From: Gammaproteobacteria bacterium
Lineage (GTDB): Bacteria > Pseudomonadota > Gammaproteobacteria > Poriferisulfidales > GCA-002705445
Direction of reading: 5' to 3'
DNA length: 64,000 bases
NCBI GenBank assembly: GCA_038114285.1
Contig: JAYNQN010000001.1
Span: forward strand, 120,454 to 184,453
Positions 7,079 through 64,000 of the stretch are shown here, one piece after another (positions within the stretch are counted from its first letter, which is position 1; each line of letters begins with the position of its first letter). The position numbers and the translations under genes were made by a program. The notes under the pieces are model-generated. The model searched no databases, had not been told where the DNA came from, and worked only from the letters and a program-made list of their open reading frames with translations.

Positions 7079-7843
7079 ATGAATAGCATAGATTTAGAAT
7101 TTATATTGGTCTTATTAATAATTATTAGTTTTATATTAATTTTAATTTCAAAAAAAAATTTAGGGAAAAAAAGCAGTTTCTTAAAATGGATTTTTTCTCA
7201 AGCAAAATCATTTTTGCCAATACTAATTATAGTTTTATTTTTAAGGTCTTTTTTAGCGGAACCTTTTAGGATACCGTCAGGCTCAATGCTGCCAACATTA
7301 CTTATTGGCGACTATATTTTAGTTAATAAGTACAATTATGGAATACGATTGCCAATTACAAAAACAAAGATAATTAATGTTTCAGATCCAAAAAGGGGTG
7401 ATGTGGTTGTTTTTAGGTATCCAGGCAATGAAAAAATCAATTTTATAAAGAGAGTAATTGGTTTGCCGGGAGATCAAATAAGGTATGAAGATAAAAATTT
7501 ATATGTAAATAACATAAAATACGAAAAAACACTGAAAAATACTCATATGTATGAGAATGAATTTTTAAGGCCAGAACTAGATATTTTTTTGGAGAGCAAT
7601 AGTAAGAATAAATCGTATTATGTATTAAATGACAATATGAGTCCCACAAATGATGACAATTTTATTGTCCCAGAAGGAAAATACTTTGTTATGGGAGATA
7701 ATAGAGATCATAGTAGTGATAGTAGATATTGGGGTTTTGTTCCAGATAAAAATCTTGTTGGAAAAGCATTTTTAATATGGATGAATTTTGATAGCAATAA
7801 ATATAGTTTAAAATATGAAAGAATAGGAAGCTCAATAAAATAA
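7079..7843 (+). CDS. lepB: Signal peptidase I
   Basis: GSMLPTLLIGDYILVNKYNYG and GDNRDHSSDSRYWGFV are S26 peptidase boxes; an N-terminal transmembrane segment is present. Confidence 0.9.
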   Translation: MNSIDLEFILVLLIIISFILILISKKNLGKKSSFLKWIFSQAKSFLPILIIVLFLRSFLAEPFRIPSGSMLPTLLIGDYILVNKYNYGIRLPITKTKIINVSDPKRGDVVVFRYPGNEKINFIKRVIGLPGDQIRYEDKNLYVNNIKYEKTLKNTHMYENEFLRPELDIFLESNSKNKSYYVLNDNMSPTNDDNFIVPEGKYFVMGDNRDHSSDSRYWGFVPDKNLVGKAFLIWMNFDSNKYSLKYERIGSSIK

Positions 7844-7848
7844 TATAT

Positions 7849-8532
7849 ATGATGAATAAATCTGACATAGAAAAATTATTATCACATAGTGTTATAAATT
7901 CAGAAATATATAAAGATGCTTTAACTCATAGAAGTGCAAGCAATAAAAATAATGAAAGGCTAGAATTTTTTGGAGATGCAATATTAGGTTTCATAGTTGC
8001 AGAATATCTTTATGAGAATTTCCCAAATGATGATGAAGGTTCTTTAAGCAGAAAAAGATCATACTTAGTTCGTAAGGAGACATTGAGTAAGATAGCTAAT
8101 TTTTATAATATTGGTAATAAAGTTATACTAGGCCAAGGTGAAAGAAAATCTGGAGGAAATAGAAGAGATTCTATAATCTCAGATACACTTGAAGCATTAA
8201 TAGCAGTAGTCTATATAATAGATGGTCCAAAAGAAGCCAAATTATTTATTCACAAAATATTTGATAAATATATAACAACTCTTCCTAGTAACGATGATCT
8301 TAAAGATTCTAAAACTAAACTTCAAGAATTATTGCAATCACATAATTGTAGTTTACCCCTATATGAAACAGATGAAATAAATGTAAATAAAAAAATTACT
8401 TTTGAAACTTTATGTAAAATAGCTGAACATAACATATGTGAAAACGGGGTAGGTTTAAATAAACGAAAGTCTCAGCAACAAGCAGCGGCAAAGGCATATA
8501 AAAAAGTCCTTGAAATCTATAAAAATGAATAG
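7849..8532 (+). CDS. rnc: Ribonuclease III
   Basis: Carries the ERLEFFGDAILG RNase III signature and a C-terminal dsRBD; lepB-rnc-era synteny. Confidence 0.95.
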   Translation: MMNKSDIEKLLSHSVINSEIYKDALTHRSASNKNNERLEFFGDAILGFIVAEYLYENFPNDDEGSLSRKRSYLVRKETLSKIANFYNIGNKVILGQGERKSGGNRRDSIISDTLEALIAVVYIIDGPKEAKLFIHKIFDKYITTLPSNDDLKDSKTKLQELLQSHNCSLPLYETDEINVNKKITFETLCKIAEHNICENGVGLNKRKSQQQAAAKAYKKVLEIYKNE

Positions 8533-9403
8533 TGGAAATATATCAATCATAGGCAAACCGAACGTTGGAAAATCGACTTTATTTAATCTATTAATTAGTA
8601 AGCATTTAGCAGGCGCAACAAGAAAACCTCAAACAACACGTCACAAAATAGACGGTGTACTTCATGAAAATAATACGGAATATATATTTGTTGACACACC
8701 TGGTATAAATTTTAATATTAGAAAAGATTTTAATAGAATTCTAAATAAAAATGCATTAACAGCAATGCATGAAGCTGATGTAATATTACACATAATTAAT
8801 TATAATAAAATTGACGAAGATGATTATAAAGTTATAGAAAATATTAAGAATATTAGTTCTTCAAAAATCCTTGTATTAAATAAGATTGATTTAGATAAAA
8901 ATAAAAATAAACTCCCAACAATTCTTACAAAAATACCAAATGAAATAGTTGGTATATATGATGAAATAATACCAATAAGTTCAAAAAAATCTGAAAATAT
9001 TACTAAACTAAAAAAAATAATAAAAAAATACTTACCGGATAATAGATCAAAAAAATTTAATGGAATAATAAGTACAAAACCTAGCGAGTTTTTTGTTGCT
9101 GAATATGTTCGTGAGGCATGCATAAAATATTTATCTGTCGAAGTACCTTATTCTTTACATGTTGAAATTAACAAATTTGAGGATGAAGAGAATTTAATTT
9201 CTGTAGCTGCAACTATTTTTTTGAAAAAAAATAGTCATTTAAGTATTGTAATTGGAAAAAATGGGTCTATGTTGGTTAAGATTAGCAAGTTTGCACGAAT
9301 TAATTCCGAAAAATTATTTAATAAAAAAGTTTATTTAAAAATTTTTGTTAAATATGATCCAAGGTGGAAAAATTCAGAAAGTTTTTTAAATTCATACAAA
9401 TAA
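8510..9403 (+). CDS. era: GTPase Era
   Basis: Has the G1 motif GKPNVGKST, DTPG, NKID and a C-terminal KH domain; overlaps rnc by 23 nt. Confidence 0.9.
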   Translation: MKSIKMNSGNISIIGKPNVGKSTLFNLLISKHLAGATRKPQTTRHKIDGVLHENNTEYIFVDTPGINFNIRKDFNRILNKNALTAMHEADVILHIINYNKIDEDDYKVIENIKNISSSKILVLNKIDLDKNKNKLPTILTKIPNEIVGIYDEIIPISSKKSENITKLKKIIKKYLPDNRSKKFNGIISTKPSEFFVAEYVREACIKYLSVEVPYSLHVEINKFEDEENLISVAATIFLKKNSHLSIVIGKNGSMLVKISKFARINSEKLFNKKVYLKIFVKYDPRWKNSESFLNSYK

Positions 9404-14815: not shown

Positions 14816-17406
14816 TAATTTATATATAATTCTGAAATTTTTTCTCTTATTTTACTTTCAATTTGATTAAAATCGATCTTTATCTTTGGTTTTTCATTAA
14901 TAGGAACCAAGATAAATACATCATTAGCTTCTTCACCCAGAGTAGATATTTTCGCATCTTTTACCATAAGATCGCAACTATCAAAGGATTCACATATTTT
15001 GGATAAAAGACCAGGATGATCTAGAGTGCTAATTTCTAATAATATTTCATTCGATTTTTGCGTTAATTGTACTTTTATAAATTTTTTAAAATTAGCTATG
15101 TTTTCTGTCTGTTTTTTAGTAATTTTTTTTATTTTGCAATCAGGATTTTCAAGAACATTATATATTTTTTCTTTTAAAAAATTCAAAGTATATTTATCTG
15201 TTATAAACTTTCCCTTATTATCAAGAAGTAGATATGTATCTATAGCTTGATCTTTTTTCAAAGTTATTATCCTTGCATCGACAATATTTATATTAAGATT
15301 ATCAATTATATTTGCAATATATGAAAAAATATTTTTTCTAAAATTTTGATAAATAGCAAGTTCTGTACAACCCTTAACTTGATTTTTTTTAAATGAAACT
15401 GCAGATTTATTTAAATTATTTGCGATAAGCTCTATATGCCATGCAACTTCTTTCTCACTATGTCTTCTCAAATAATCTGTGTTCAGATATGACCATATTT
15501 TTTCAAAACCATTTTTACCAATATTTTTTAATAACATTTTTTCTACTGATTTTTTTAAATTTTTAATATATCTATCTGGCTTTTTTATATTAGGTTTATT
15601 TTTTCTAAAATAAGATTTACATGATAAATATAATTCTTTTAATAATGAATCTTTCCAGTCAGTATACAGCTCAGGATTAGTACCTCTTATATCAGCAATT
15701 GTTAAAAGATATAAATAATCTAATCTTTCTTGCGTTTTTACAACAGCAGCAAAATCCTTGATTACATCTATATCACTTATATCTTTTTTTTGTGTTGTTA
15801 ATGACATTAATAAGTGATTTTCAACTAACCAGGAAACCATTTCTGATTGATGCTTATTCATACCATGATTTTCACAAAATTTTAAAGATTCCTTTGAGCC
15901 AATCGCTGAGTGATCTTTATTTTGGCCCTTGCCGATATCATGGAATATGGCGCCTAGATATAGAATTTCAGGGGAAAGTAAATTTTTAAAAATTTCATAC
16001 ACAAAACCATATTTATTTTTACAGTCTTTTGAACTCATATATCTGGTATAAGAAAGAACAGCAAGCGTGTGTTCGTCTACTGTATATATATGAAATAAAT
16101 CAAATTGCATCATCCCTACAATTTTGGAGAACGGTTTTAAATAAGCGGCAAGAATACCATAATCATTCATCTTTCTAAGACATCTTGCAACGCCATTATC
16201 TTGCAAAAAAATGTCCATGAATAATTTTTTATTTTTTGAATTACTTCTAAAATCTTTATTAATCAAATATAAACTTTCTCTAATATCTCTAATTGTGTTA
16301 GCAGAAATGTCATATAATTCATCTTTTTCATTTTTTATTAAAAAAATTTCAAGTAATTTACTAGGGTGCTTGCGGAAAATATTTTTATTCTTTACACTAA
16401 TACTGTTATTTTTTACATAAAAAACATCATTAATAATTTTAGATTTCTGAAAAAATTTCTCCCCTGATGGATTTTCAATAAATTTTACAAGAATTTCATT
16501 TAATTGTTTTATATTAGATATGTGCTTGTAAAAATTTTGCATAAATTTTTCTACACCAATATTAGTTTTGCAATCATAACCAAATAATTCAGCGAGTTTT
16601 TTTTGGTTTGCAAAATACAGTCTTTCTTCTGGTTTATTATGCAAATAATGTAATAAAAATCTTGTCTTTGATAGAAATCTCTCTGACTGCAAAAGTGCTA
16701 AATACTCTTTTTTTGTAATTATTTTATTATTGTATAAATCAAAAAGAGAATCTGTATTAAAATTTCGCTTTGTGACCCAAATTAGCGTTTGAAGGTCTCT
16801 AAATCCACCTGGGCCCTCTTTAATATCTGGCTCAAGGAGATAACCTGTATTTGAATATTTGTTATATCTATTTTTTTGTTCGATTTTTTTAGCACTTAGA
16901 AATTTTTCTTTTGACCACAATGAGTTATTTTTTATATTTTTTAGTAAATTATTATATAAATCTTTGTTTCCAGTTATAAATCTACAGTCAAGAAGATTTG
17001 TATATATAGTTACATCATCTTTTATTGCATAAATACATTCTTTTATAGTTCTAACAGAGTGCCCAACAGGTACTTTAAAATGCCATATTTCAGCTATAAA
17101 ATTTTCAATATTTTTTATAAGATCTTTATTTTCATAATTATTTATTAAGATTAGTATATCTATATCTGAGTAAGGAAATAGCTCTGATCTGCCATAGCCT
17201 CCGACAGCAATTAAGCTTATATCTTTGTTTTCTAGATTATTTTTTGCCCAAGAATTTTTAATAAGTTGATCAATAATAGTTGACTTATTCTTTATTAATT
17301 TTTTTATGCTAATATTCTTCTTATATCTTAAATATATATAATCATTAATAACATTTTTATTATCTTGTGAGAACGAGAAATTATTGATAATGTTTTTCTG
17401 AAGCAT
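14815..17406 (-). CDS. glnD: [Protein-PII] uridylyltransferase / uridylyl-removing enzyme
   Basis: 863 aa with a nucleotidyltransferase domain ([16 protein letters not shown]), an HD domain (HDIGKG) and two C-terminal ACT-like domains. Confidence 0.9.
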
Positions 17407-18164
17407 TATAAGGTTTCTTCTGGTCTTTTAGTTAATACCTCGTAACCATTTTTTGTTACAAGAACAGTATGTTCCCATTGTGCAGATAAACTATGATCTT
17501 TTGTTACAACAGTCCAATTATCTGGTAGGAGTTTAACCTCCTTTTTGCCAAAATTTATCATAGGCTCTATAGTAAAAGTCATTCCTTCTTTTAAAGTGAT
17601 ACCTTCTCCTTTGTTTCCGTAATGTAAAATCTGTGGCTCTTCATGAAATTCTTTTCCAATACCGTGTCCACAATATTCTCTAACAACTGAGCAATGGTTT
17701 TTTTCTGCAAAAGTTTGAATATTATTCCCTATATCACCAGTTGTAGCTCCAGGTTTCACTGTTTTTATACCAATTTTTAAAGCTTCATATGTTAAATCAA
17801 CAAGCCTTTTTGCTTGGATAGAGGGCTTACCTACAAAAAACATTTTACTAGTGTCACCGTGATAACCATCTTTAATTACTGTAATATCAATATTCAAAAT
17901 ATCTTGTTTTTTTAAAATTCTTTTATCTGGTATTCCATGGCAAACTTGATGGTTTAAAGAAGTGCATATAGATTTTGGAAACCCTCTATAGTTTAAGGGT
18001 GCAGGTATACAATTAAGTTCTTCCACTATGAAGTTATGACATATATCATTTAATTCATTTGTTGATATTCCTGGTTTCACATACTGCTCAATCATTAGAA
18101 GAACTTCTGATGCTAAGTTACCAGCTATTCTCATTTTCTCTATTTCTTTAGCGTTTTTTATCAT
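17406..18164 (-). CDS. map: Methionine aminopeptidase (type I)
   Basis: 252 aa with M24 pita-bread motifs (GHGIGKEFHEEP, FTIEPM). Confidence 0.95.
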   Translation of the reverse strand: MIKNAKEIEKMRIAGNLASEVLLMIEQYVKPGISTNELNDICHNFIVEELNCIPAPLNYRGFPKSICTSLNHQVCHGIPDKRILKKQDILNIDITVIKDGYHGDTSKMFFVGKPSIQAKRLVDLTYEALKIGIKTVKPGATTGDIGNNIQTFAEKNHCSVVREYCGHGIGKEFHEEPQILHYGNKGEGITLKEGMTFTIEPMINFGKKEVKLLPDNWTVVTKDHSLSAQWEHTVLVTKNGYEVLTKRPEETL

Positions 18165-18269
18165 TTTATATGGTTAAATTAGATGGATTTAGATATTATT
18201 ATACAGATTGTTCTTAGGCTAAGTCTATGTTATAAAGCCTACGCAATATAAAAAAACTAACCTAAAATT

Positions 18270-42824: not shown

Positions 42825-44370
<1,546 letters not shown>

Positions 44371-53182: not shown

Positions 53183-54406
53183 ATGCTCTTAATTATAAAT
53201 AAATTAAAAAATGCAGATGTATATTTGTTACCAATAGCAATTTTTTTTATATTAATATCATCTGCAGGTACAAATATATTTATTTTATTAGCAGTATTAT
53301 TTTCATTGGTACACTGCATATACAAAAAAAATTACCAAATTCTATTTGAGAAAAATTTCCTTAAGATTTGCTTTTTAATATATTTTCTATTTTTAATATC
53401 GTCTTTATATAGTATTAGTAATTTTGAAGAAATAATTAGCTCTTTAAAAAAATATATTAAATTTCTATATATTCCTTTTATATATTACATTGTCAAAATA
53501 CATAAAAATGAAAAATTAATAATTAATTTTTTTATATTTGGCTCAACAATTATTTTGGCTTTGTCATATTTAAAATACTTTAATATATTCAATTTTGATA
53601 GTTTCTATGAATTTTTAAAAAATACTAATATTGCAAACCCTAAAGATAAAATAATTATTAATAAAACTTCCGTTTTTCAGAATTATATTGTGCATGGTGT
53701 TGTTTTTTCTTTTTATTCATTTCTTTGTTTTTATCTTGCAAAAAAAAATAATATCTTACAATATTATTCATTATCCTTAATGTCTTTATTAAACGTGTTA
53801 TTATTAAATGATTCACGCAAAGGATATATAATTATTTTAATTTTATCTGTTTTTACTTTTTTTCAATTAATTTCTAGCAATAAAATACGCTTATCAATAT
53901 TATTAATTTTTGGCTCAATATTTTTTACGCATTTTTCTGATAATTTATTAAATAGAGTAAATGTCTTAAGTAGTGATTTGTATTTTATAGATAAAAATAA
54001 TTATAATACATCGTTAGGTTATAGGTATATATGGACTAAAGTAGGAGTTGATAATCTTGCAAAGAAGCCTTTATTTGGTTTTGGTGCGGGGTCATACGAA
54101 AAAACGTCTGTAAGATATTATAAGGATAATAATGTAAATGATTATGATAGTTACATTACGAATAACCCACACAATGAATTTATAAGTATTTCAACCCAAT
54201 TGGGTTTAGTTGGTTTATCTTTATTTTTTATTTTTTTATATAATTTGTTTAAAGATTCAAATTACCAAACCGTTCCAATTGGTATAGTTATAACTGTTTT
54301 TGTTTCATCATTATTTAACAGCGCTTTTTATGATAATATGCTAGGATTATTTCTAATAATTATAATTAGTCTTTTATATCAAAATAATTTTAAAATTAAA
54401 AATTAA
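53183..54406 (+). CDS. waaL: O-antigen ligase (WaaL / Wzy_C-domain) family polytopic membrane protein
   Basis: About 10 predicted transmembrane helices and a periplasmic loop with GFGAGSYE...NNPHNEFISISTQLGLVGL, matching the Wzy_C/O-antigen-ligase signature. Confidence 0.6.
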   Translation: MLLIINKLKNADVYLLPIAIFFILISSAGTNIFILLAVLFSLVHCIYKKNYQILFEKNFLKICFLIYFLFLISSLYSISNFEEIISSLKKYIKFLYIPFIYYIVKIHKNEKLIINFFIFGSTIILALSYLKYFNIFNFDSFYEFLKNTNIANPKDKIIINKTSVFQNYIVHGVVFSFYSFLCFYLAKKNNILQYYSLSLMSLLNVLLLNDSRKGYIIILILSVFTFFQLISSNKIRLSILLIFGSIFFTHFSDNLLNRVNVLSSDLYFIDKNNYNTSLGYRYIWTKVGVDNLAKKPLFGFGAGSYEKTSVRYYKDNNVNDYDSYITNNPHNEFISISTQLGLVGLSLFFIFLYNLFKDSNYQTVPIGIVITVFVSSLFNSAFYDNMLGLFLIIIISLLYQNNFKIKN

Positions 54407-54412
54407 TAGAAA

Positions 54413-55213
54413 ATGAAATTTTTGCAAAATAATCTAGCAGTTAAAGATATTATTTTTTCTTTTAAAAATTTTTATTCTTGGTCATATTTATCTTATTTTG
54501 ACCTAAAATTAAAATATCGAAGAACATTTCTTGGGCCTTGGTGGGTTGTACTAGGAATTGCTATTTCCGCAACTGCGATGTGTTTCTTATGGAGTACAAT
54601 TTTTAATTTAGACTGGAAATCATATTTAACATATTTGTTTTCTGGTTTTATTATATGGATGTGGATAAGTCAACTTGTAATTGATGCGCCTGATATATTC
54701 TGTGGTAGCGCGTCAAAATATATTAAAGCTTACCCCAATCCTCCTATTTTTTATGTCTTTAGAAAATGTTTTTTAAGTTTTTTACTTTTTTTACACCATA
54801 TACCTCTTATAATTTTAGTAACAATCTTAGTAAATCAAAAAATTAATATAATTGTTATATATACACTACCTATAGGTTTATTTTTAATTTTTATAAATTC
54901 TATATTATTTACTACTATTATTGGAATGGTTTCTGCAAGGTATCGAGATATTGATCCTTTAGTGAAATCATTAATGCCGCCTATGCTCTTATTAACACCA
55001 GTATTATGGAAACCTGAAATGCTAGGCGAATATCATTCATACGTTTATTTAAATCCATTTACACATTTTGTAGGCATAGTTAGAAATGATTTAATTGGTT
55101 TGGAGTTTGATTTAAAAATATGGATTGGCGCTATTCTGATAACAATTTTTCAATTAATAATATTTTTTTTACTTTACTCAAAAAAGAGTAAAAGAATTGT
55201 ATTTTGGGTTTAA
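54413..55213 (+). CDS. wzm: ABC-2 type polysaccharide export permease (Wzm/KpsM-like)
   Basis: 266 aa, six transmembrane helices, an ABC-2 fold; overlaps the next ATPase gene. Confidence 0.75.
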   Translation: MKFLQNNLAVKDIIFSFKNFYSWSYLSYFDLKLKYRRTFLGPWWVVLGIAISATAMCFLWSTIFNLDWKSYLTYLFSGFIIWMWISQLVIDAPDIFCGSASKYIKAYPNPPIFYVFRKCFLSFLLFLHHIPLIILVTILVNQKINIIVIYTLPIGLFLIFINSILFTTIIGMVSARYRDIDPLVKSLMPPMLLLTPVLWKPEMLGEYHSYVYLNPFTHFVGIVRNDLIGLEFDLKIWIGAILITIFQLIIFFLLYSKKSKRIVFWV

Positions 55214-55974
55214 TTATGAGGTCAGAAATTATATTAAAAAATGTAAATTTAGATTTTCCGATATATGATGTTGAGTCATTATCTATAAGGAACAAAATAA
55301 GTAATTTTGGAAAAGTTATAGTTAATAAAACTTCTACAAATAAGTCTGGCTCTAGAATTGTTAAAGGCCTAAAAAATATTAATTTTAATATGAATCATGG
55401 AGATAGAATCGCTCTTCTTGGCCCCAACGGATCTGGTAAAACAACATTATTAAAACTTCTTGCTGGAATATATTCGCCAACATCGGGCACCCTAAGTAAA
55501 ATTGGTGATATAAGTTGTATGTTAGATATTGGATTTGGATTTGAACAAGACGCTACTGGATATGAAAATATAATATTATCAAATATTACACGAGGCCTGT
55601 CTAAAGATGATATTGAAAAAATATTACCAGATATTGCTGAATTTAGTGGCTTAGGGGAATTTTTAGATATGCCTTTCAGAACATATTCCAGTGGAATGCA
55701 AGCGAGACTTGCTTTTTCTTCAGCTATAGCAAATACCCCAGATATATTGTTAATAGATGAATTTTTTTCTACAGGCGATATTGATTTTTCAGAAAAAAGT
55801 AAAAAAAAGGTTTTGAAGATGATGGATAACTCATCAATATTAGTATTTGCATCACACGATCTAGAATTACTAGACTCAATATGCAATAAAGCTATATGTA
55901 TGCATAGTGGAGAAATAATTTTCTCAGGCAGTACGAAGGAAGCAATTGCACAATATAAATCAATTTATGAATAA
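55204..55974 (+). CDS. wzt: ABC polysaccharide export ATP-binding protein (Wzt/KpsT-like, no C-terminal carbohydrate-binding domain)
   Basis: Walker A GPNGSGKTT, signature YSSGMQARL, Walker B LLIDEF; 256 aa. Confidence 0.8.
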   Translation: MGLIMRSEIILKNVNLDFPIYDVESLSIRNKISNFGKVIVNKTSTNKSGSRIVKGLKNINFNMNHGDRIALLGPNGSGKTTLLKLLAGIYSPTSGTLSKIGDISCMLDIGFGFEQDATGYENIILSNITRGLSKDDIEKILPDIAEFSGLGEFLDMPFRTYSSGMQARLAFSSAIANTPDILLIDEFFSTGDIDFSEKSKKKVLKMMDNSSILVFASHDLELLDSICNKAICMHSGEIIFSGSTKEAIAQYKSIYE

Positions 55975-57418
55975 AAAATATAACTTAGATTATAAAGTAG
56001 ACCCATCATTTCAATGCACAAAATATGTAAAAGCTCATAATGAGAATAATTTTACTAAGCATAGTTACAAAGACCATATCGTTAGAGCAGATCTTTGTAG
56101 CTCTTTAATCTCGATACTTTTTAACACAAACAATATTGATACCTCCCTTTATTCAATAAAAAAATTTATAGATAAATCTGATGACCCAGCAAAATTACAA
56201 TTTTGTATAAAGATTGATAATGAATCTAATGTTACAGAAGAATTTTTAAAAAAAATATCTAAATATAAAAGTAATTTTGTAATCATCTCATCTCCAAAAG
56301 GCAGAGGTTACTTGGATCTTTGGCAATGGATTAATTTTTTATACAAAATTTCATCTAGAAAATCAAAATTTGTGATGAATATATCTGACGAAATGTATGT
56401 AAATGAAGATAAATGGGATAAGTTGTTAGAAAAATATTTAAATTTGACAGACGATAGAATTTTTCGTTTAAGAACATCTGTATATAAAAATAGAAATTAT
56501 AGCACTTTATTTGAATGCGGATATGCTCCAGACACAACTGCAATATATTCAAGAAAATATATTGAACTGCAAGGCGATTTTTCACCTTGTTTCGGACCTG
56601 ATAACGGTCAGCAATTTGTCGCATACTATTTAGCAACAATTAACTACCCAAGACATTATCAATTTTTAAGAGATTTTGTAATAGAAACAATTAGTTTTAA
56701 AGGCCAAGGAACAAATAAAGGTTTAGAAGGAGAATCAAGAAATCAAAGACTAGTGGATAATTATTTACTTTGGATAAATATGTTCAAATTTAAATTTCAA
56801 AGTATTTATTTGAAAAGAGCAAGAAAAATTCAAGTGGAAATTTTAAAATTTAATTTTCCAGATATTAATATAGTAGACAATATTTTTAAGCAAAGATTTG
56901 AACTAAGGTATACAGATGAAAATAATAGAAAAAATATAGTTTTAAAATTGTCATACAAAATATCAAAAATTAAACATTTGTGGCACAACATTAGTAAAAT
57001 AAATTTTTTTAAATGGCATACAGGTTATGATAGACCTTTAATATATGGAGTATTGACACATATATGCGTAAAATTTTTAAAAAAATTTCCAAAATTAAAA
57101 TCAGCAAAAAAAACATCTAATCCTATACTTATAAGAGTAATAGATAATTTTAGTGATAAGAGTTTAAAAATAAATAAGTCAATTAATTCAAGAATAAGAG
57201 TTTTAGAAAAATTTAAAATAATGGAATTCACAATATTTATTATTGCAATAATTTTATTAATTGTAATCTTTGTAGCAACATTTCCTAGTTTTAAAACTAA
57301 TTTATTAATACTTAATCAAAGATTTAAAATAATTAAAATTTATTCAAGAAAAAATTCATTTATTATCTCAAATAATAAAATAGATCAATCAAAAACAGTT
57401 GTTATAAGAGGCGATTAA
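55946..57418 (+). CDS. Hypothetical 490-aa protein with a single C-terminal transmembrane anchor; no recognisable family
   Basis: Lys/Asn-rich soluble region followed by a hydrophobic helix MEFTIFIIAIILLIVIFVATF near the C-terminus. Embedded in the glycan cluster between wzt and the nucleotidyltransferase. Confidence 0.4.
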   Translation: MHNINQFMNKKYNLDYKVDPSFQCTKYVKAHNENNFTKHSYKDHIVRADLCSSLISILFNTNNIDTSLYSIKKFIDKSDDPAKLQFCIKIDNESNVTEEFLKKISKYKSNFVIISSPKGRGYLDLWQWINFLYKISSRKSKFVMNISDEMYVNEDKWDKLLEKYLNLTDDRIFRLRTSVYKNRNYSTLFECGYAPDTTAIYSRKYIELQGDFSPCFGPDNGQQFVAYYLATINYPRHYQFLRDFVIETISFKGQGTNKGLEGESRNQRLVDNYLLWINMFKFKFQSIYLKRARKIQVEILKFNFPDINIVDNIFKQRFELRYTDENNRKNIVLKLSYKISKIKHLWHNISKINFFKWHTGYDRPLIYGVLTHICVKFLKKFPKLKSAKKTSNPILIRVIDNFSDKSLKINKSINSRIRVLEKFKIMEFTIFIIAIILLIVIFVATFPSFKTNLLILNQRFKIIKIYSRKNSFIISNNKIDQSKTVVIRGD

Positions 57419-57421
57419 TTT

Positions 57422-58612
57422 ATGAAGCAATGTGTAATTCTAGTTGGTGGAAAAGGAACTAGGCTAGGTGAGTTAACTAAAAATACACCAAAGCCAATGT
57501 TAGAGATAAATAATAAGCCTTTTTTACTTTACATAATTGAAACTATCGTTAGATATGGATTTACAGAAATAATACTATTAGCATCACATGCAAATAAAGT
57601 TCTAATAGATTACTTTAAAAAGAATAGCTATAAAAATTGCAAGATTAAGATTATTGTTGAGGAGGAACCGCTAGGGACAGGTGGTGCTTTAGTAAATGCA
57701 TTTGAGCATTTAAATGACAGTTTTTTTTGCTTAAATGGAGATTCTATAATTGAAGGTAATTGGTTATCTTTAGTTGAAAATTTTGATACTAATGCAGATG
57801 TTGTTATTGGACTTACCGAAACGAATGATTCATCTCGCTACGGGTCAATTGAAATACAAAATAAAAAAATTATTTCTTTTAATGAGAAGAATGAAAGTTC
57901 AAAATCTAAATTAATAAATGGAGGTATTTATTTACTGCGAAAATCTATATTTAAAAATCTTAAAAAAAATTTTATATCATTGGAAAATGATATATTTCCC
58001 AATATAGTTAATTCAGGAAAAGCTAATGGATTAAAAATAAAAGGTTTTTTTATAGACATTGGAACAGTTAAATCTTTAGAGTATGCAAGAAAAAGAGATT
58101 GGCAGAAAGATAAAAAAGCCGTGGTCTTTGATAGAGATGGTACACTAAATCATGATGAAGGATACACATATAAGATAGAAGACTTGTCATGGACTGACGG
58201 CGCTATAGATTTAATAAAATATCTAAATAACAATAATTATTTAGTTTTTGTTGCAACCAATCAAGCTGGTATAGCAAAAGGTAAATTCCTAGAAAGTGAT
58301 ATGTTTAAATTTCATGAAAATATGCAAGAGCAATTAAGAAAAGTAGGGGCACATATAGATAAATTTTATTATTGCCCATTCCATATTGAAGGGGTAGTTG
58401 ATAAATATAAAATTGATAGTAATGACAGAAAGCCTAATGTTGGGATGTTGCAAAGTATCTATCAAGAATGGAATTTACAAAAAAGCAAAATGATTATGAT
58501 AGGAGATAGAGACACTGACATAGAGTGCGCAGAAAAATTTAAAATACAGGGTTATAAATACAATATTAAAGATGATATAATGGAATTTTTTAAAAATAAA
58601 ATTAATTTTTAA
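57422..58612 (+). CDS. Bifunctional sugar-1-phosphate nucleotidyltransferase (HddC-like) / D-glycero-D-manno-heptose 1,7-bisphosphate phosphatase (GmhB)
   Basis: N-terminus VILVGGKGTRLGELTKNTPKPML is the NTP_transferase G-x-G-T-R-L motif. The C-terminal ~180 aa are colinear with E. coli GmhB: VFDRDGTLN...GY, VATNQAGIAKGKF, YYCPFH, RKPNVGML, MIGDRDTDIECA. Confidence 0.8.
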   Translation: MKQCVILVGGKGTRLGELTKNTPKPMLEINNKPFLLYIIETIVRYGFTEIILLASHANKVLIDYFKKNSYKNCKIKIIVEEEPLGTGGALVNAFEHLNDSFFCLNGDSIIEGNWLSLVENFDTNADVVIGLTETNDSSRYGSIEIQNKKIISFNEKNESSKSKLINGGIYLLRKSIFKNLKKNFISLENDIFPNIVNSGKANGLKIKGFFIDIGTVKSLEYARKRDWQKDKKAVVFDRDGTLNHDEGYTYKIEDLSWTDGAIDLIKYLNNNNYLVFVATNQAGIAKGKFLESDMFKFHENMQEQLRKVGAHIDKFYYCPFHIEGVVDKYKIDSNDRKPNVGMLQSIYQEWNLQKSKMIMIGDRDTDIECAEKFKIQGYKYNIKDDIMEFFKNKINF

Positions 58613-58617
58613 ATACA

Positions 58618-59313
58618 ATGAATTATGAAAATTTTATAAATGAGTTCAATAAAAAAGGGTATTTTATTCTTTCTGGAGTTTTTGAATCAAAAGATTGCGA
58701 AAAAATTATATCCGAAGCAAATAAAATTAAAGAAAAAGACAATAATTATCTTCCCTTAATGAATCCACATAAAAATTCTAAATCCATAATGGAAGCTATG
58801 GGAAATAAAACAATAATAAGATTTATAGAGTCTTATTTTAAAAATGAGGTTTATGGTTTACAAACAGAGTTTTTTTTTATGCCTCCACATACAAAAGGTT
58901 TTACGCCTCATCAAGATAATACATACGTGCAGGCTGATGAAAATTCATTTGTATCGGCTTGGGTTGCCCTTACAGATGTAAATGAAAAAAATGGTGGTTT
59001 GATAATTTGGCCAATGTCACATAAAGAAAAAAAACTGCAATCTTTGGAAAATATAGAAGAAAAATCATTTAATCAAGACCCTAACGCCAGAAGTAGAATA
59101 ACTATACTCCCGGATAGCTATAAAAAGATTACGCCATCTATAAAAAAAGGTGATGTTATTATGATTCATAGTTGGTTAGTTCATGCTTCAAATGATAACA
59201 AGTCTAAAGCAAATAGAAATGCCTTGTTATGCACTTATTTGAAAAAAGACGCAAATTTTAGGCCTGGAAATACTGCGAAAAGAAAACCTTTCAAATTAAT
59301 ATCTAATTTATGA
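58618..59313 (+). CDS. Phytanoyl-CoA dioxygenase (PhyH) family Fe(II)/2-oxoglutarate-dependent oxygenase
   Basis: 231 aa; HQD facial-triad motif (FTPHQDNTY) and a distal His in IHSWLVHAS; PhyH-like length and spacing. Confidence 0.6.
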   Translation: MNYENFINEFNKKGYFILSGVFESKDCEKIISEANKIKEKDNNYLPLMNPHKNSKSIMEAMGNKTIIRFIESYFKNEVYGLQTEFFFMPPHTKGFTPHQDNTYVQADENSFVSAWVALTDVNEKNGGLIIWPMSHKEKKLQSLENIEEKSFNQDPNARSRITILPDSYKKITPSIKKGDVIMIHSWLVHASNDNKSKANRNALLCTYLKKDANFRPGNTAKRKPFKLISNL

Positions 59314-60200
59314 ATAAAATAAACAAAGGACACATGGGATCTACAATAAAATTTTCTTCTAAAGAAGATGTAAAACTATTTTTAAAAGATTTCAATAGCC
59401 CCAGTAAAATAGTAGAACTCTTTTCTTCTTGGAAGTATCTGAACCAATATGATTTAAGTAAAATTAAGTTTAAAGAAGTTATAATTGATGAATTAATTAA
59501 AAAGAAATTGGTTGATGATTTAGTTTTTAGTAAAAATGAATATAAACTTGAGAAATTACATTTGTGTTTAAATTCAAAATATAAAACACTTGATGAGTCA
59601 GAGCAAAATAAAATATCTATTAGTTTTTATGAAACATCTAAAATATTAAATGATCTTTATGTGGAATTTATAAAAAATGTAATATCAAAAGATTTTAATG
59701 AGAAAATTTATTATCAGAAAGTTCCGACTTTTAGATTTCATTTTCCTAATCAGGAGGGTTACAACTGGAATGACAGGTACCATACAGATATCATGCTGGG
59801 CCATCCTCCCTATGAAAATAACATTTGGGTACCTTTTACAAATGCTTTTGGTAGCAATAGTATGAGACTGATGCCTTTGCAAGACAGTATTGACTTATTA
59901 AATGAGTGTAACAATGATTTTGAGGTTTTTGCAGAAAAAACTCAATACAATGAAGACTTTATGGATAATTTGAAAAAATGTTCAGATCCTTTGGAAATGC
60001 GCTATGGAGAATATATTATATTTGATTCAAGATGTTTGCATTGCACCCAGTACAATGATACAAAAGACACAAGAATAAGCATGGATATAAGAGTAATACA
60101 AGAAAGTGAGATAAAAAAATATTCACGTTCGTATACGACAACAGGTAGAAAAAAAATGCCTTTCTTGCCAGGTTATTACTTTTCCAAAGAAGCTTTATAA
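59310..60200 (+). CDS. Hypothetical protein, possibly a second divergent Fe(II)/2OG oxygenase-like enzyme
   Basis: 296 aa; a candidate HxD...H triad (RYHTDIM ... FDSRCLHCT). This is motif-level inference only. Confidence 0.35.
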   Translation: MNKINKGHMGSTIKFSSKEDVKLFLKDFNSPSKIVELFSSWKYLNQYDLSKIKFKEVIIDELIKKKLVDDLVFSKNEYKLEKLHLCLNSKYKTLDESEQNKISISFYETSKILNDLYVEFIKNVISKDFNEKIYYQKVPTFRFHFPNQEGYNWNDRYHTDIMLGHPPYENNIWVPFTNAFGSNSMRLMPLQDSIDLLNECNNDFEVFAEKTQYNEDFMDNLKKCSDPLEMRYGEYIIFDSRCLHCTQYNDTKDTRISMDIRVIQESEIKKYSRSYTTTGRKKMPFLPGYYFSKEAL

Positions 60201-60205
60201 AAAAT

Positions 60206-61153
60206 ATGAAAAATAAATTTAACAATGAAAAAGCATATTATCTATATTTACTTATAAGAAAAAGTGAAGAAAAAATTATAGATTTATATAGCACAGATAA
60301 AATAAAAAGCCCCGTACATTTATCAATTGGTCAAGAAGCAATTGCTGTAGGAGTAAGTTTGGCGTTAAAAGACGAAGACATAATTTTTAGTAATTACAGG
60401 GGACATGCTCATTATATAGCGCGAGAAGCAAACCTTGATAAAATGTGGGCTGAGCTTTATGGAAAAAGTAGAGGTACTGCGCGTGGTAAAGGTGGTTCTA
60501 TGCATTTAAATGATTGGGGTAAAAAATTTATGCCGACGTCAGCCATTGTATCGACTGCTATCCCTCAAGCTGTCGGTTATGCGTTCGCTCTCAAATATAA
60601 AAAACAAAATGGTATTGTAATTTGTTATCATGGTGATGGTGCTACAGAGGAGGGTGTCTTTTGGGAGTCTCTGAACTTTGCTAGTTTGCATGAACTTCCT
60701 ATTATATTTATTTGTGAAAACAATAAATATGCAATATACACACATCAAGATAAAAGAGTAAAAAATGATCCTATTATAGAGAGAGCAAATTCGTTTGGAG
60801 TAAAATCAAAAAAGATAAAGTTTGGATCTACTGAAGATTACTATAATGTAACATCAGAATGTATAAATAATATTAATAATAAAAGTGAACCATATTTGAT
60901 TGAGTGTGTAACTACAAGATGGAAAGATCACGTAGGAACTGGAGATGCATCTGATCTGAATTACCGTGATATGAGAGAAATTGATTTTGCAATTGAACAT
61001 GATGATTTAATTAATTTAGAAAAACAATTATCATCAGATGTAATTAAAAAAATTAAGTTACAAGTAGATAGAGAATTAGAAAATGCAGTAAATTTTGCTG
61101 AAGCAAGTAATTTTCCAAATAAAGAAGAACTTTATGATAACGTCTATGGATAA
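60206..61153 (+). CDS. Thiamine-diphosphate-dependent dehydrogenase E1 component, alpha subunit (pyruvate/acetoin dehydrogenase E1-alpha-like)
   Basis: 315 aa; the TPP-binding block GDGATEEGVFWESLNFASLHELPIIFICENNKYAI is the GDG...N motif of the E1-alpha family. Confidence 0.8.
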   Translation: MKNKFNNEKAYYLYLLIRKSEEKIIDLYSTDKIKSPVHLSIGQEAIAVGVSLALKDEDIIFSNYRGHAHYIAREANLDKMWAELYGKSRGTARGKGGSMHLNDWGKKFMPTSAIVSTAIPQAVGYAFALKYKKQNGIVICYHGDGATEEGVFWESLNFASLHELPIIFICENNKYAIYTHQDKRVKNDPIIERANSFGVKSKKIKFGSTEDYYNVTSECINNINNKSEPYLIECVTTRWKDHVGTGDASDLNYRDMREIDFAIEHDDLINLEKQLSSDVIKKIKLQVDRELENAVNFAEASNFPNKEELYDNVYG

Positions 61154-61158
61154 TAATA

Positions 61159-62208
61159 ATGAATTCAATTGTTGATAAAAAACTAATAAATTATGGTGAA
61201 GCTATTTACGAAGCTTGTTATCAAGAGATGGAAATTGATAAAAATGTTTTTGTGTACGGGCTCGGTGTTGACGATCCCAAAGGCCATTATGGAACTTCCA
61301 AAGATCTTCATAAAGTTTACGGTAAAAATAGAAGCTTTGATGTCCCCCTGTCAGAAGATGGTTTAACTGGCATAGGTATCGGTGCTGCGTTAGCTGGCTT
61401 AAGACCAATTTATGTTCATCAGCGAATGGATTTTCTTTTGTTATGTATGAATCAATTAGTGAACATGGCAGCTAAGATTAGATATATTTCTTCTGGCGAA
61501 CACTCGGTTCCAATCGTTATAAGGGCTGCAGTTGGAAGAAGCTGGGGACAAGGAGCTCAGCATAGTCAATCACTCCAATCATTTTTTATGCATGTTCCAG
61601 GTATAAAAGTTATTGCACCAACAACACCACATGACGCCAAAGGGGCGTTAATAGCAAGCATAAGAGACAATAATCCTGTTGTATTTATAGAGCATAGAAT
61701 GTTATACAATAACGCAGGATATGTGCCATCAAGTTTATATGAGGTACCTTTTGGTAAAGGAAGAATTTTAAAAGAAGGTAATGATATTACAATCGTAGGA
61801 GTAAGTTACACGGTAGAGGATTCGTTAAGAGCTTCAGAGTTACTGAAAGGCGTTGGTGTAAATGCCGAAATAATTGACCCAATAAGTTTATCACCAATAG
61901 ATTATGAGTTGATAAGAAAGTCAGTTTCTAAAACAGGAAAACTATTGGTTGTAGATAATGGATGGACAACATGTGGATTTTCATCAGAAATTATTACAGA
62001 TGTTGCAATAAATTGTAATAATGTAAGTTGTGAAAGAATTGGATTTTCAGAAACACCTTGCCCAACTACACCCAGTTTAGAAAATATATTTTATCCTACT
62101 CCACAGTCAATAGCAGTAAAAGCAAACGAAATGTGCGGTGGAGATTCAAAGTGGAGTCCTCCTGAGCAACCTGCAAAAGAAATTACTTCATTTAAGGGTC
62201 CATTTTAA
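61159..62208 (+). CDS. Thiamine-diphosphate-dependent dehydrogenase E1 component, beta subunit (transketolase-like)
   Basis: 349 aa with a transketolase pyrimidine-binding domain plus a C-terminal domain; paired with the upstream alpha subunit. No E2/E3 genes are adjacent. Confidence 0.8.
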   Translation: MNSIVDKKLINYGEAIYEACYQEMEIDKNVFVYGLGVDDPKGHYGTSKDLHKVYGKNRSFDVPLSEDGLTGIGIGAALAGLRPIYVHQRMDFLLLCMNQLVNMAAKIRYISSGEHSVPIVIRAAVGRSWGQGAQHSQSLQSFFMHVPGIKVIAPTTPHDAKGALIASIRDNNPVVFIEHRMLYNNAGYVPSSLYEVPFGKGRILKEGNDITIVGVSYTVEDSLRASELLKGVGVNAEIIDPISLSPIDYELIRKSVSKTGKLLVVDNGWTTCGFSSEIITDVAINCNNVSCERIGFSETPCPTTPSLENIFYPTPQSIAVKANEMCGGDSKWSPPEQPAKEITSFKGPF

Positions 62209-62291
62209 AATTTTTATTTTTTTTATTTGGTCAATAATTTGATATTATAAAAATAATGTTATTTTATAAATATTATAAACAAGGAATTTAA

Positions 62292-63302
62292 GTGAAAGCA
62301 TTAATAACTGGAATAACTGGAATGGTAGGCTCACATCTTGCAGATTATCTTCTGGAAAATACTGATTGGGAAATTCATGGCTTAATTAGATGGAGAAGTC
62401 CTTTGGATAATATTGAGGGATTAATAAAAAATATAAATAACAAAGAAAGAGTATTTTTACATTATGGTGACTTGCGAGATCCTCAGTCTTTAAATAAAGT
62501 TGTATCTGAAATAATTCCAGATTATGTATTTCACTTAGCAGCACAAAGCTATCCAAAAACAAGTTTTGATGCTCCAATAGATACTTATGATACAAATATT
62601 TCTGGAACATCAAATCTTTTAGAAGCTTTAAAAGTTTATGCGCAAGATTCGTGTATACACGTATGTGCATCATCAGAAGTTTTCGGAAGGGTTTCAAAAG
62701 ATAAACTACCGATAAATGAAGAGTGTTCATTTCATCCTGCTTCTCCATATGCAATTTCAAAAGTTGGAACGGATCTAGTAGGAAGATTCTATGCGGAAGC
62801 TTATGGAATGAAAATAATGACTACAAGAATGTTTACTCATACAGGACCTAGAAGAGGGGATGTTTTTGCAGAATCAACTTTTGCAAAACAAATTGCATTA
62901 GCAGAAGCAGGAAAAATTGATCCAATTATAAAAGTTGGAAACTTAAAATCTATGAGAACTATAGCTGATGTTCGAGATGCTGTAAGAGCTTATTATATGC
63001 TAGTTACAATAAACCCAACATCTGGTGAGTACTATAATATTGGAGGGAGTCATACGTGCACAATAGAGAAAATACTAAATGACTTGATCAATATATCTAC
63101 AATCAAAGATAAGCTTAAGATTGTTCAAGATAAAGACAGAATAAGACCAATTGACGCAGATTTGCAAGTTCCAGACACATCAAAATTTAAGAAGCATACT
63201 GGATGGGAGCCCAAAATACCATATGAAAAAACTATATCAGATTTATTAGATTTTTGGAGAGTGCAAGTTTCTAAAAATAATGGAAATTATTTAACAAGAT
63301 AA
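62292..63302 (+). CDS. Extended-SDR NDP-sugar 4,6-dehydratase (GDP-mannose/GDP-heptose 4,6-dehydratase Gmd/DmhA-like; Rmd-like reductase not excluded)
   Basis: GTG start; ITGITGMVGSHLADYLL Rossmann motif, a YxxxK region (SPYAISK) and HTGPRRG...F, colinear with the Gmd HESPRRGETF block. Confidence 0.6.
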   Translation: MKALITGITGMVGSHLADYLLENTDWEIHGLIRWRSPLDNIEGLIKNINNKERVFLHYGDLRDPQSLNKVVSEIIPDYVFHLAAQSYPKTSFDAPIDTYDTNISGTSNLLEALKVYAQDSCIHVCASSEVFGRVSKDKLPINEECSFHPASPYAISKVGTDLVGRFYAEAYGMKIMTTRMFTHTGPRRGDVFAESTFAKQIALAEAGKIDPIIKVGNLKSMRTIADVRDAVRAYYMLVTINPTSGEYYNIGGSHTCTIEKILNDLINISTIKDKLKIVQDKDRIRPIDADLQVPDTSKFKKHTGWEPKIPYEKTISDLLDFWRVQVSKNNGNYLTR

Positions 63303-63309
63303 TGATTAT

Positions 63310-64000
63310 ATGAATGACATAAATTTTATAAAATCATTAAATAAAGCAGAGCCTTTTTTAGATCATAAAAATGCAGTTTTAAGTGCGCCAATTAGGCATT
63401 TGTTTATGATTGGGGTTATCTGGTACTTAAATAAAAATAAAAAAATTACTAATATTTTAGAAATAGGATCATGGTTTGGAGCATCAACTTTATCATGGGC
63501 TCAAGGTTTATTAAAATACGCAAAATTAAATAGCTCTATCACATGTATAGATGCGTGGGAGCCTTTTTTTGATATGAATGTTCACGCAGATCATAATTAT
63601 GCTAACGAAATGGAACAACTGCTTGAGTCAGAATTTGCATACAATATCTTTTTGCACAATATGAGAACAATTAAGAAGGAATTAAAAACTCAGCACTTTA
63701 GAGGTAAAAGTGAAAATATATTATGCCAATTGAAAAATGAAATTTATGATGTTGTTTTTATAGATGCAGATCATACTTATAAATCTGTAAGCAAAGATAT
63801 TAAAAATTCATTGAGGCTAGTAAAAGATGGTGGAATAATTTGCGGAGACGATTTAAATTTGCAATTATGTGAAATTGATAAAGACTATGCAAATAAGAAT
63901 AAAGACAAAGACTTCATAAAAGATCCACTAACAAATAAAAATTATCATCCTGGGGTTACGCTTGCAGTTTTTGAAGAATTTGGCGAGGTTTCATCATGGG
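63310..64000 (+). CDS. Class I SAM-dependent methyltransferase of the TylF/MycF/CmcI family (3' end outside the window)
   Basis: ILEIGSWFGASTLSWAQ (SAM-binding motif I) and FIDADHTYKSV, matching the D-x-D-H-x-Y block of TylF/CmcI-type methyltransferases. Confidence 0.55.
   Translation, partial: MNDINFIKSLNKAEPFLDHKNAVLSAPIRHLFMIGVIWYLNKNKKITNILEIGSWFGASTLSWAQGLLKYAKLNSSITCIDAWEPFFDMNVHADHNYANEMEQLLESEFAYNIFLHNMRTIKKELKTQHFRGKSENILCQLKNEIYDVVFIDADHTYKSVSKDIKNSLRLVKDGGIICGDDLNLQLCEIDKDYANKNKDKDFIKDPLTNKNYHPGVTLAVFEEFGEVSSW

Follow-up and report, generated by a model that had tools for sequence, protein, structure and literature searches.

An operon-like surface-glycan locus in a marine gammaproteobacterial lineage, with a predicted GDP-heptose pathway and two E1-type thiamine enzyme pairs

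Immediately after purA, the last part of the 64,000-nucleotide (nt) stretch analysed here (contig JAYNQN010000001.1, positions 120,454 to 184,453; 'the window') holds a block of open reading frames (ORFs) that follow one another on one strand with spacings of −29 to +83 nt, the first starting 15 nt past the purA stop codon. All eleven ORFs are re-found in the sequence, and Pfam and NCBIfam confirm most of the domains that an earlier annotation from the letters alone (the sequence-only reading) had named (Table 1). They encode a WaaL-like membrane protein, an ATP-binding cassette (ABC) transporter, a glycosyltransferase (GT), a nucleotidyltransferase-phosphatase fusion, two oxygenases, a two-subunit thiamine enzyme, a sugar-nucleotide dehydratase and a methyltransferase. 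The block runs past the window edge, as that reading expected, for ~14 kb more, including a second thiamine enzyme pair: the whole locus is ~24 kb with ~25 genes, conserved and operon-like, and the window shows its first half. It is rather likely that this is a surface-glycan locus of the ABC-dependent route, in which a GDP-heptose is dehydrated by a DmhA-type enzyme, branched at C4 by a thiamine enzyme pair of the E1 type, hydroxylated and O-methylated.

Table 1. Genes and features of the glycan locus and of related loci (window positions unless a related contig, numbered L, is named; aa, amino acids; SDR, short-chain dehydrogenase/reductase)
Feature	Position	Strand	Evidence or content
Glycan block	53183-64000	+	11 co-directional, tightly packed ORFs
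WaaL-like membrane protein (O-antigen ligase / Wzy_C)	53183-54406	+	PF04932 68.9 bits (cutoff 31.7)
Wzm-type ABC-2 permease	54413-55213	+	NF050109 galactan Wzm/RfbD 161 bits (cutoff 380); PF01061 23 bits
Wzt-type ABC ATPase	55204-55974	+	NF050108 Wzt/RfbE 220 bits (cutoff 400); PF00005 80 bits
GT-A glycosyltransferase, 490 aa	55946-57418	+	C-terminal membrane helix predicted
HddC-like nucleotidyltransferase (residues 1-225) fused to GmhB-like HAD-IIIA phosphatase (residues 230-380)	57422-58612	+	NTP_transferase and HAD-IIIA
PhyH-family Fe(II)/2-oxoglutarate oxygenase	58618-59313	+	PF05721 95.7 bits
Second Fe(II)/2-oxoglutarate oxygenase, 296 aa	59310-60200	+	TIGR04324 81 bits (cutoff 150)
E1 alpha-type subunit	60206-61153	+	E1_dh, PF00676 200 bits
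E1 beta-type subunit, partner of E1 alpha	61159-62208	+	PF02779 (Transket_pyr) 111 bits; PF02780 (Transketolase_C) 95 bits
DmhA-like GDP-heptose 4,6-dehydratase	62292-63302	+	GDP_Man_Dehyd-type SDR; full-length alignment to 7US5
Class I S-adenosylmethionine methyltransferase (Methyltransf_24 / TylF-like)	63310-64000, cut by window end	+	PF13578 69 bits; PF05711 (TylF) 17.6 bits
Order past window end (1)			methyltransferase remainder, 344-aa protein, GT2, HddA-like GHMP kinase, Fcl-like SDR
Order past window end (2)			DJ-1/PfpI, PMI-like cupin, small HAD-like protein, second E1 alpha/beta pair
Order past window end (3)			another SDR, short-chain dehydrogenase, 2OG-FeII_Oxy_3 oxygenase
Second module	L002 15936-20899 (4.9-9.9 kb past window end)		DJ-1/PfpI, PMI-like cupin, HAD-like, E1 pair, SDR, short-chain dehydrogenase
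ColD/RfbH-type C3-dehydratase genes	L054 11984-13255; L009 16272-17477; L052 4196-5476; L053 3-1238

The enzymes that would activate the sugar point to a heptose. In the fusion protein, whose translation displays DRDGT and RKP motifs, the transferase half has HddC as its best model (NF049965, 152 bits, cutoff 300) and Yersinia HddC (5XHW/6JQ8, 121 bits) as its best solved relatives, and judging by these matches it probably acts on a sugar 1-phosphate, with GDP as the nucleotide. The phosphatase half passes the general HAD-IIIA models (TIGR01662, 100 bits, cutoff 44.6; TIGR01656, 104 bits, cutoff 84); its best functional matches are GmhB-specific models, at scores below cutoff (NF006506, 125 against 178 bits; another, 112 against 150), and its best solved relative is Escherichia coli GmhB (2GMW, 93 bits). 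The dehydratase aligns with the Campylobacter jejuni GDP-heptose 4,6-dehydratase 7US5 over residues 3-328 at 362 bits, against 199 bits for the next match and ~140 bits for GDP-mannose dehydratases, and reaches 182 bits with the Gmd model TIGR01472 (cutoff 415). The catalytic motifs SSE and YAISK (YxxxK) line up with those of 7US5, so that the enzyme is nearer to heptose than to GDP-mannose dehydratases and keeps the S/T-E and YxxxK residues. The NDP-heptose synthesis and 4,6-dehydration proposed in the sequence-only reading are supported by these matches.

Homologues of the two remaining heptose genes, which that reading suspected downstream, do lie there. Sequence past the window end was read on near-identical contigs (97-98% nucleotide identity) to ~10 kb; a metagenome scan for farther sequence found nothing closer than 82% nucleotide identity, so that what is known of the end of the locus comes from related species. 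On the near-identical contigs, 3.9 kb separate the window end from a gene for an HddA-like GHMP kinase. Its best model is NF049969 (162 bits, cutoff 600) and its top four solved relatives are all heptose kinases (117-136 bits; 3K85, 4N3O and 4USK among them), the nearest being enzymes of C. jejuni, Burkholderia and Bacteroides. In all related species where the end of the locus was seen (L007-L009, L034, L036, L044, L046 and L054), the last gene is convergent and GmhA-like; its 190-aa SIS_2 product matches C. jejuni GmhA (1TK9) at 175 bits. Together with an Fcl-like reductase, the predicted core of a 6-deoxyheptose route is complete: GmhA, HddA, GmhB, HddC, DmhA and that reductase.

The same matches bear on whether the activated sugar might be a hexose, GDP-mannose being converted into a GDP-6-deoxyhexose by a fucose- or rhamnose-type cluster with extras. 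PGAP labels the dehydratase 'GDP-mannose 4,6-dehydratase', the HddC, GmhB and HddA scores fall below their equivalog cutoffs, and a true Fcl-like gene (369 bits) and a NUDIX gene are found past gmhA in relatives. However, the dehydratase clearly scores higher with the heptose enzyme than with Gmd (362 against ~140 bits), kinase, phosphatase, nucleotidyltransferase and isomerase all have heptose-pathway enzymes as best solved relatives, and the locus contains no ManB or ManC gene. Nor does a standard mannose or rhamnose O-antigen cluster follow downstream, and a hexose is very improbable.

Thiamine-dependent attachment of a two-carbon branch to a sugar has been described by two routes, one using AviB1/AviB2 with the non-haem iron enzyme AviO2, the other using YerE (PMC4425429). 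The window's pair is of the first, two-subunit type. The alpha subunit scores 282 bits with TIGR03182 (below the cutoff of 394), keeps the thiamine-diphosphate motif GDG-X26-NN and has human pyruvate dehydrogenase (PDH) E1 alpha as its best solved match (130 bits, about one-third of aligned positions identical); the beta subunit scores 290 bits with NF006667 (below 321). The sequence-only reading remarked that E2 and E3 are missing, which holds for the window and the next 10 kb, and no E2, E3 or lipoyl-domain gene is present in ~35 kb of locus (the window part and ~25 kb downstream in relatives). A housekeeping 2-oxoacid dehydrogenase E1, which would pass these cutoffs and be encoded beside E2 and E3, is accordingly not what is found here; the pair, like the oxygenases, belongs to the glycan operon. 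What is found is the setting of AviB1/AviB2-type enzymes: an E1 pair with an intact thiamine-diphosphate site in a cluster predicted to make an NDP-4-keto sugar. The pair adjoins DmhA in L001-L006, L008 and L054, all the relatives where this stretch was read. When E1 alpha was used to search for homologues, every match was 65-99% identical and came from its own marine lineage. We infer that the first pair acts as a thiamine-dependent sugar carboligase; addition of a two-carbon unit by it, like hydroxylation and methylation, is consistent with the gene content. A phosphonopyruvate decarboxylase of a phosphonate pathway was rejected as a candidate, since the pair is of the E1_dh type and no phosphoenolpyruvate mutase gene is present.

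Both subunits also have secondary matches to DXS and transketolase models, which would suit a different chemistry: transfer of a two-carbon ketol or acetyl unit onto a sugar (phosphate) aldehyde, giving a linear octose or nonose with no branch at C4. The sequence-only reading had pictured a sugar 'extended with a two-carbon unit', words that fit this chemistry. These matches are weak, however, at 28-60 bits against 200-290 for E1; the described sugar-modifying E1 pairs and YerE-type enzymes all act on a ring ketone (PMC4425429, PMC9306805), and dehydratases that form 4-keto sugars lie nearby in L054, L055 and L051. Chain extension is thus hardly to be expected.

The second E1 pair is more divergent. 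In its alpha subunit (276 aa) the GDG of the thiamine-diphosphate motif reads GDS, while both Asn residues of the pair are retained; its beta subunit has 305 aa. The module in which it lies (Table 1) is better conserved across related species (80-92% amino-acid identity) than the surrounding transferase and kinase genes (50-75%) and is absent from the shorter locus L054. The presence of this second pair suggests a second branching or acyl-forming step.

Where on the sugar the first pair might act is best approached through related loci, read against yersiniose A, which is made by a 4,6-dehydratase, an RfbH-type C3-dehydrase, the thiamine/flavin carboligase YerE (relatives ErwE/MyGE) and the reductase YerF (PMC9306805). 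In L054, where E1 alpha is 64% identical to that of the window, E1 beta and DmhA are separated by a DegT-family gene that matches the RfbH and ColD models best (373 bits; 282 bits, with aminotransferases at 164). The genes of this type in Table 1 carry the motif SFY[YF]SHHITTLEGG, in which His replaces the Schiff-base Lys, and L044 has such a gene as well; they are for these reasons taken as ColD/RfbH-type C3-dehydratase genes, and a function as aminotransferases was rejected. Automatic annotation would mislabel them as aminotransferases. Relatives with such a gene would therefore make GDP-3,6-dideoxy-4-keto-heptose, the heptose counterpart of the substrate of YerE, and in L054, L009, L044, L052 and L053 the predicted C3-dehydratase would complete the yersiniose logic. 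None was seen in the readable parts of the window's own species.

Two unrelated glycan loci contain E1 pairs at 37-53% identity. L055 carries a DmhA orthologue (68%) beside its pair. In L051 (NCBI GCA_964620765.1, G+C 0.59) a pair 44-53% identical to the window's (16214-18266) shares the locus with an ArnA-type UDP-4-keto-pentose synthase (4428-5513, 530 bits); a formyltransferase and a DegT protein that is a true aminotransferase are encoded there too. The eurekanate branch in orthosomycins has been proposed to arise from a precursor of the UDP-4-keto-pentose kind (PMC10338323). A third locus, L053 (a TARA scaffold, G+C 0.23), has HddA-like, GmhA-like, ColD-type C3-dehydratase, SDR and TIGR04324-like genes and no E1 pair; it encodes a 564-aa thiamine enzyme of the acetolactate synthase (ALS)/YerE type (7214-8908). 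We read these contexts as non-orthologous replacement within one kind of pathway, and they seem to us the strongest support for a C4-branching role of the E1 pair. A bolder proposal extends from here: a widespread marine pathway to a 4-C-acyl-branched, (3,)6-deoxy, hydroxylated and O-methylated heptose of at least nine carbons ('hepto-yersiniose'), in which a PDH-E1-type enzyme forms the C-C bond on a GDP-sugar, an E1 pair can be exchanged for a YerE-type enzyme, and a new GT-A family assembles the polymer. We regard this as possible but less likely than not.

The locus might on the other hand make an ordinary polymer of the 6-deoxyheptan type, like those of Burkholderia pseudomallei CPS-I or Yersinia pseudotuberculosis O:2a, the E1 pairs supplying a non-carbohydrate substituent or its precursor (an aldehyde, acyloin, acetyl or hydroxyalkyl group) for later attachment. 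All six core 6-deoxyheptose enzymes are there, the second pair sits with DJ-1/PfpI, cupin and HAD-like genes that resemble small-molecule metabolism, and the oxygenase and methyltransferase genes are found elsewhere without E1 pairs. Yet genes that could transfer such a group, for an acyltransferase, E2 or CoA ligase, are missing from the locus, the first pair adjoins an enzyme that forms a 4-keto sugar (in L054, the C3-dehydratase as well as DmhA), and L053 has a homologue of a YerE-type sugar carboligase where an E1 pair is missing. This alternative is unlikely, if less so than chain extension.

Several observations weigh against a C-branched heptose. (i) The gmhA gene is seen in related species and not on the window's own genome. 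(ii) The HddC, GmhB and HddA scores all lie below the NCBIfam equivalog cutoffs, so these are divergent members whose specificity is inferred. (iii) E1 alpha has a His that aligns with the His beside the phosphorylated Ser of human PDH E1 alpha, so that a carboligase and a dehydrogenase component cannot be told apart by fold. (iv) L049, L050 and L052 have the oxygenase pair, the methyltransferase and GT-A genes but, as far as these loci were seen, no E1 pair; the oxygenases can thus occur independently of it. (v) The likeness to the actinomycete E1 pairs AviB1/AviB2 and Pau11/Pau12 is one of gene context and motif, not of sequence comparison.

Because the oxygenases and methyltransferase travel with the GT-A family in loci without an E1 pair, they form a separate tailoring module, which plausibly performs hydroxylation followed by O-methylation. 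The first oxygenase has human PhyH and SnoK as its best solved relatives, and is paired with a TIGR04324-like oxygenase also in the distant loci L049, L050 and L054. Of the two PhyH-like oxygenases claimed from the sequence, this one is so by its Pfam match; the second has no match in Pfam and earns the description by its TIGR04324 score and its fold. Its residues H158-x-D160, H244 and R255 are invariant among 42 homologues, and its model (pLDDT 94) has a PhyH-type Fe(II)/2-oxoglutarate (Fe/2OG) fold like those of CurA Hal, SyrB2, SptF and SnoK; motif and fold together identify the 296-aa protein as a second oxygenase. The top fold matches, CurA Hal and SyrB2, would allow a halogenase, a reading ruled out by the invariant carboxylate ligand of the H-x-D motif. 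With 81 bits against a cutoff of 150, the protein falls outside TIGR04324 and is a distant relative of that family, the sole specific model that matches it. JGI labels its close relatives 'sporadic carbohydrate cluster 2OG-Fe(II) oxygenase'. The family is uncharacterised in NCBIfam/TIGRFAMs, a literature search found no paper on it, and its members, too, are found next to a methyltransferase in polysaccharide loci. The methyltransferase has a full length of 279 aa on L001-L006, and the locus as a whole contains four or five Fe/2OG oxygenases.

Export by the ABC route with a WaaL-like protein, as the sequence-only reading had it, agrees with the Wzm, Wzt and Wzy_C domains found. Wzm and Wzt are both present and neither a Wzx nor a Wzy is recognised: no gene of L001-L009 has a reported Wzx-type flippase domain, and the sole Wzy_C protein of the locus is the WaaL-like one. 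That protein matches no NCBIfam equivalog, and by its domain matches it could be a ligase, an O-oligosaccharyltransferase or a polymerase. The Wzt-type ATPase is a short form of 256 aa with no C-terminal carbohydrate-binding module; it is called as 252 aa on related contigs, and its true start is probably the ATG at 55216. The 490-aa protein, an 'orphan' in the sequence-only reading, turns out to be a glycosyltransferase with paralogues downstream. It matches nothing in Pfam or NCBIfam, but has a Rossmann-like GT-A fold with a DXD-type acidic motif, and is a GT-A glycosyltransferase of a family that has no model. Its paralogues are proteins of 344, 339 and 437 aa; the locus holds three or four copies of this family and one GT2. 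Searched against 1.84 billion representatives, a profile of the family gathers 617 clusters (50% identity). Many of these are multidomain proteins in which the family core, itself without a Pfam model, is joined to a GT2, an FkbM methyltransferase or carbohydrate-binding modules.

The pathway that these genes would encode can be pictured as follows. By homology, the DmhA-type enzyme would convert GDP-heptose into GDP-6-deoxy-4-keto-D-lyxo-heptose. The E1 alpha/beta pair, acting without E2 or E3, would decarboxylate pyruvate or another 2-oxo acid and add the resulting acyl-anion equivalent to the C4 keto group, yielding a 4-C-acyl-branched deoxyheptose. Short-chain and extended SDR reductases may then reduce the branch and ring ketones, two Fe/2OG oxygenases may hydroxylate the sugar, and the Methyltransf_24 enzyme may O-methylate it. 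At the inner membrane face, the GT2 and the three or four unmodelled GT-A enzymes would build the polymer on a lipid carrier; Wzm/Wzt would export it, and the WaaL-like protein would transfer it to lipid A-core, or possibly to protein.

Every enzyme family in the locus is already known. The GDP-6-deoxy-heptose pathways of C. jejuni capsules, Burkholderia pseudomallei capsular polysaccharide I (CPS-I) and Yersinia pseudotuberculosis O:2a use the same families (GmhA, HddA/WcbL, GmhB, HddC, DmhA/WcbK and a C4 reductase), and CPS-I is exported by an ABC transporter, as proposed here. Unlike in those pathways, HddC and GmhB are fused, and the locus goes beyond them in its two E1 pairs, four to five Fe/2OG oxygenases and methyltransferase. 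Characterised GDP-heptose tailoring comprises a C4-dehydrogenase, a 4,6-dehydratase, a C3-dehydratase, epimerases, reductases and mutases, and the review describing it mentions neither thiamine nor branching (PMC10680097); a literature search found no combination of GDP-heptose with a thiamine-dependent branch. With yersiniose A the locus shares a logic, in which an NDP-4-keto-(3,)6-deoxy sugar receives a thiamine-dependent acyl branch at C4 and is reduced with NAD(P)H (PMC9306805). The yersiniose scaffold, however, is a CDP-hexose rather than a GDP-heptose, and its thiamine enzyme is a single-chain ALS-like flavoprotein rather than a two-subunit E1 type. AviB1/AviB2 (avilamycin) and Pau11/Pau12 (paulomycin) resemble the window's pair in being E1 pairs without E2/E3 in sugar-tailoring clusters, near Fe-dependent oxygenases and ketoreductases (PMC4425429, PMC4753412). 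They belong to actinomycete antibiotics and are proposed to act after glycosyl transfer, whereas the host here is Gram-negative and the predicted product a surface polysaccharide. Acetyl branches can be further modified by reductases, transaminases or oxygenases (PMC9306805). As for export, the locus resembles the Klebsiella pneumoniae O2a galactan-type O-polysaccharide in its best models for Wzm/RfbD and Wzt/RfbE, its short Wzt, its WaaL-like gene and the lack of a recognised Wzx/Wzy, but the scores are far below the cutoffs (161/380 and 220/400 bits) and its GTs mostly belong to the unmodelled GT-A family.

As far as the literature consulted goes, no Gram-negative surface-glycan locus has been described that combines a heptose scaffold with two E1-type pairs, several Fe/2OG oxygenases and a GT-A family lacking a model. 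In the literature, the E1-type route (AviB1/AviB2, Pau11/Pau12) is placed in Gram-positive producers of antibiotics, the YerE route in Gram-negative lipopolysaccharide (LPS) (PMC4753412). If the proposed pathway is correct, it would be the first heptose-based pathway to a C-branched sugar and would contain the first E1-type thiamine carboligase assigned to a Gram-negative cell-surface glycan. It would also connect the YerE route of LPS with the AviB1/AviB2 route of antibiotics, which have until now been regarded as distinct. As compact proteins suited to expression, the E1 pair, the two oxygenases and the GT-A family lend themselves to enzymology and to making tertiary-alcohol sugars by biocatalysis.

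The source contig (199,796 bp; proteins MEL0102043-56) belongs to a metagenome-assembled genome, and contigs 97-98% identical to the window are found in many marine metagenomes, several of them ~1.1 Mb long. The organism represents an abundant, uncultured marine lineage with genomes of ~1.1 Mb; streamlined as it is, it still spends ~2% of its genome on this locus. Surface glycans shape interactions with phages and grazers. The genes upstream of the block, checked from position 34 kb of the window to purA, are housekeeping genes, as the sequence-only reading had described them: dnaE, accA, tilS, pyrG, kdsA, eno, ispD, ispF and tsaB, then miaA, hflX, hflK, hflC, hisZ and purA. That reading also called the cluster 'accessory'. 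A switch to glycan genes right after purA is real, but the G+C content of the block is genome-like (0.278 against 0.291 upstream), and the locus is collinear in the six conspecific contigs L001-L006 and syntenic in several related species, so that a recently acquired island was rejected and 'accessory island' is the wrong label. Within the block, a terminator scan found no terminator-like hairpin between genes, and promoter-like matches were no commoner than in shuffled sequence.

The gene order past the window end (Table 1) was taken from the contigs 97-98% identical to the window. Related species (L007-L009, L034, L036, L044 and L046) have the same order at 50-90% amino-acid identity and continue it with another PhyH oxygenase, one or sometimes two paralogues of the 344-aa protein and, last, the convergent GmhA-like gene. 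A scan of a genome collection with the downstream short-chain dehydrogenase gave three syntenic relatives (L007-L009), whereas 24 distant matches (L010-L033) lay in unrelated loci. Beyond gmhA, on the minus strand of L009 (17467-19910) and likewise in L034, L036 and L044, an oppositely oriented gene set comprises a true Fcl-like homologue of GDP-fucose synthase (369 bits), a NUDIX hydrolase, a membrane protein with an LPG_synthase_TM domain and large proteins of 620-680 aa without Pfam domains. NUDIX and SDR pairs recur in L050, L052, L053 and L055, and the set beyond gmhA may be a second glycan-modifying system.

Two observations concern variation among the conspecific contigs. The GT-A and fusion genes (55946-58612) have ~95% nucleotide identity to the six contigs, while the flanking genes are 97-99.7% identical in five of the six and 95.7-98.6% identical in L002; these identities suggest that a short block of alleles has diverged here, possibly through recombination. 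On the long-read, Pilon-polished contigs L001, L004 and L006, the WaaL, Wzt, fusion, E1 alpha, E1 beta and kinase genes are split in two, and the same genes are intact on short-read contigs of the same species; the splits are most likely homopolymer errors, not pseudogenes.

Elsewhere in the window, the enolase gene (42825-44108) contains an in-frame TAA at 43131-43133, at a position that normally reads DGTENK in enolases. A single GAA-to-TAA change would explain it; the stop may come from faulty assembly or sequencing, or this genome may carry a genuine nonsense allele. The tRNA-Val (GAC) gene at 279-355 is the sole RNA family match in the 64-kb window.

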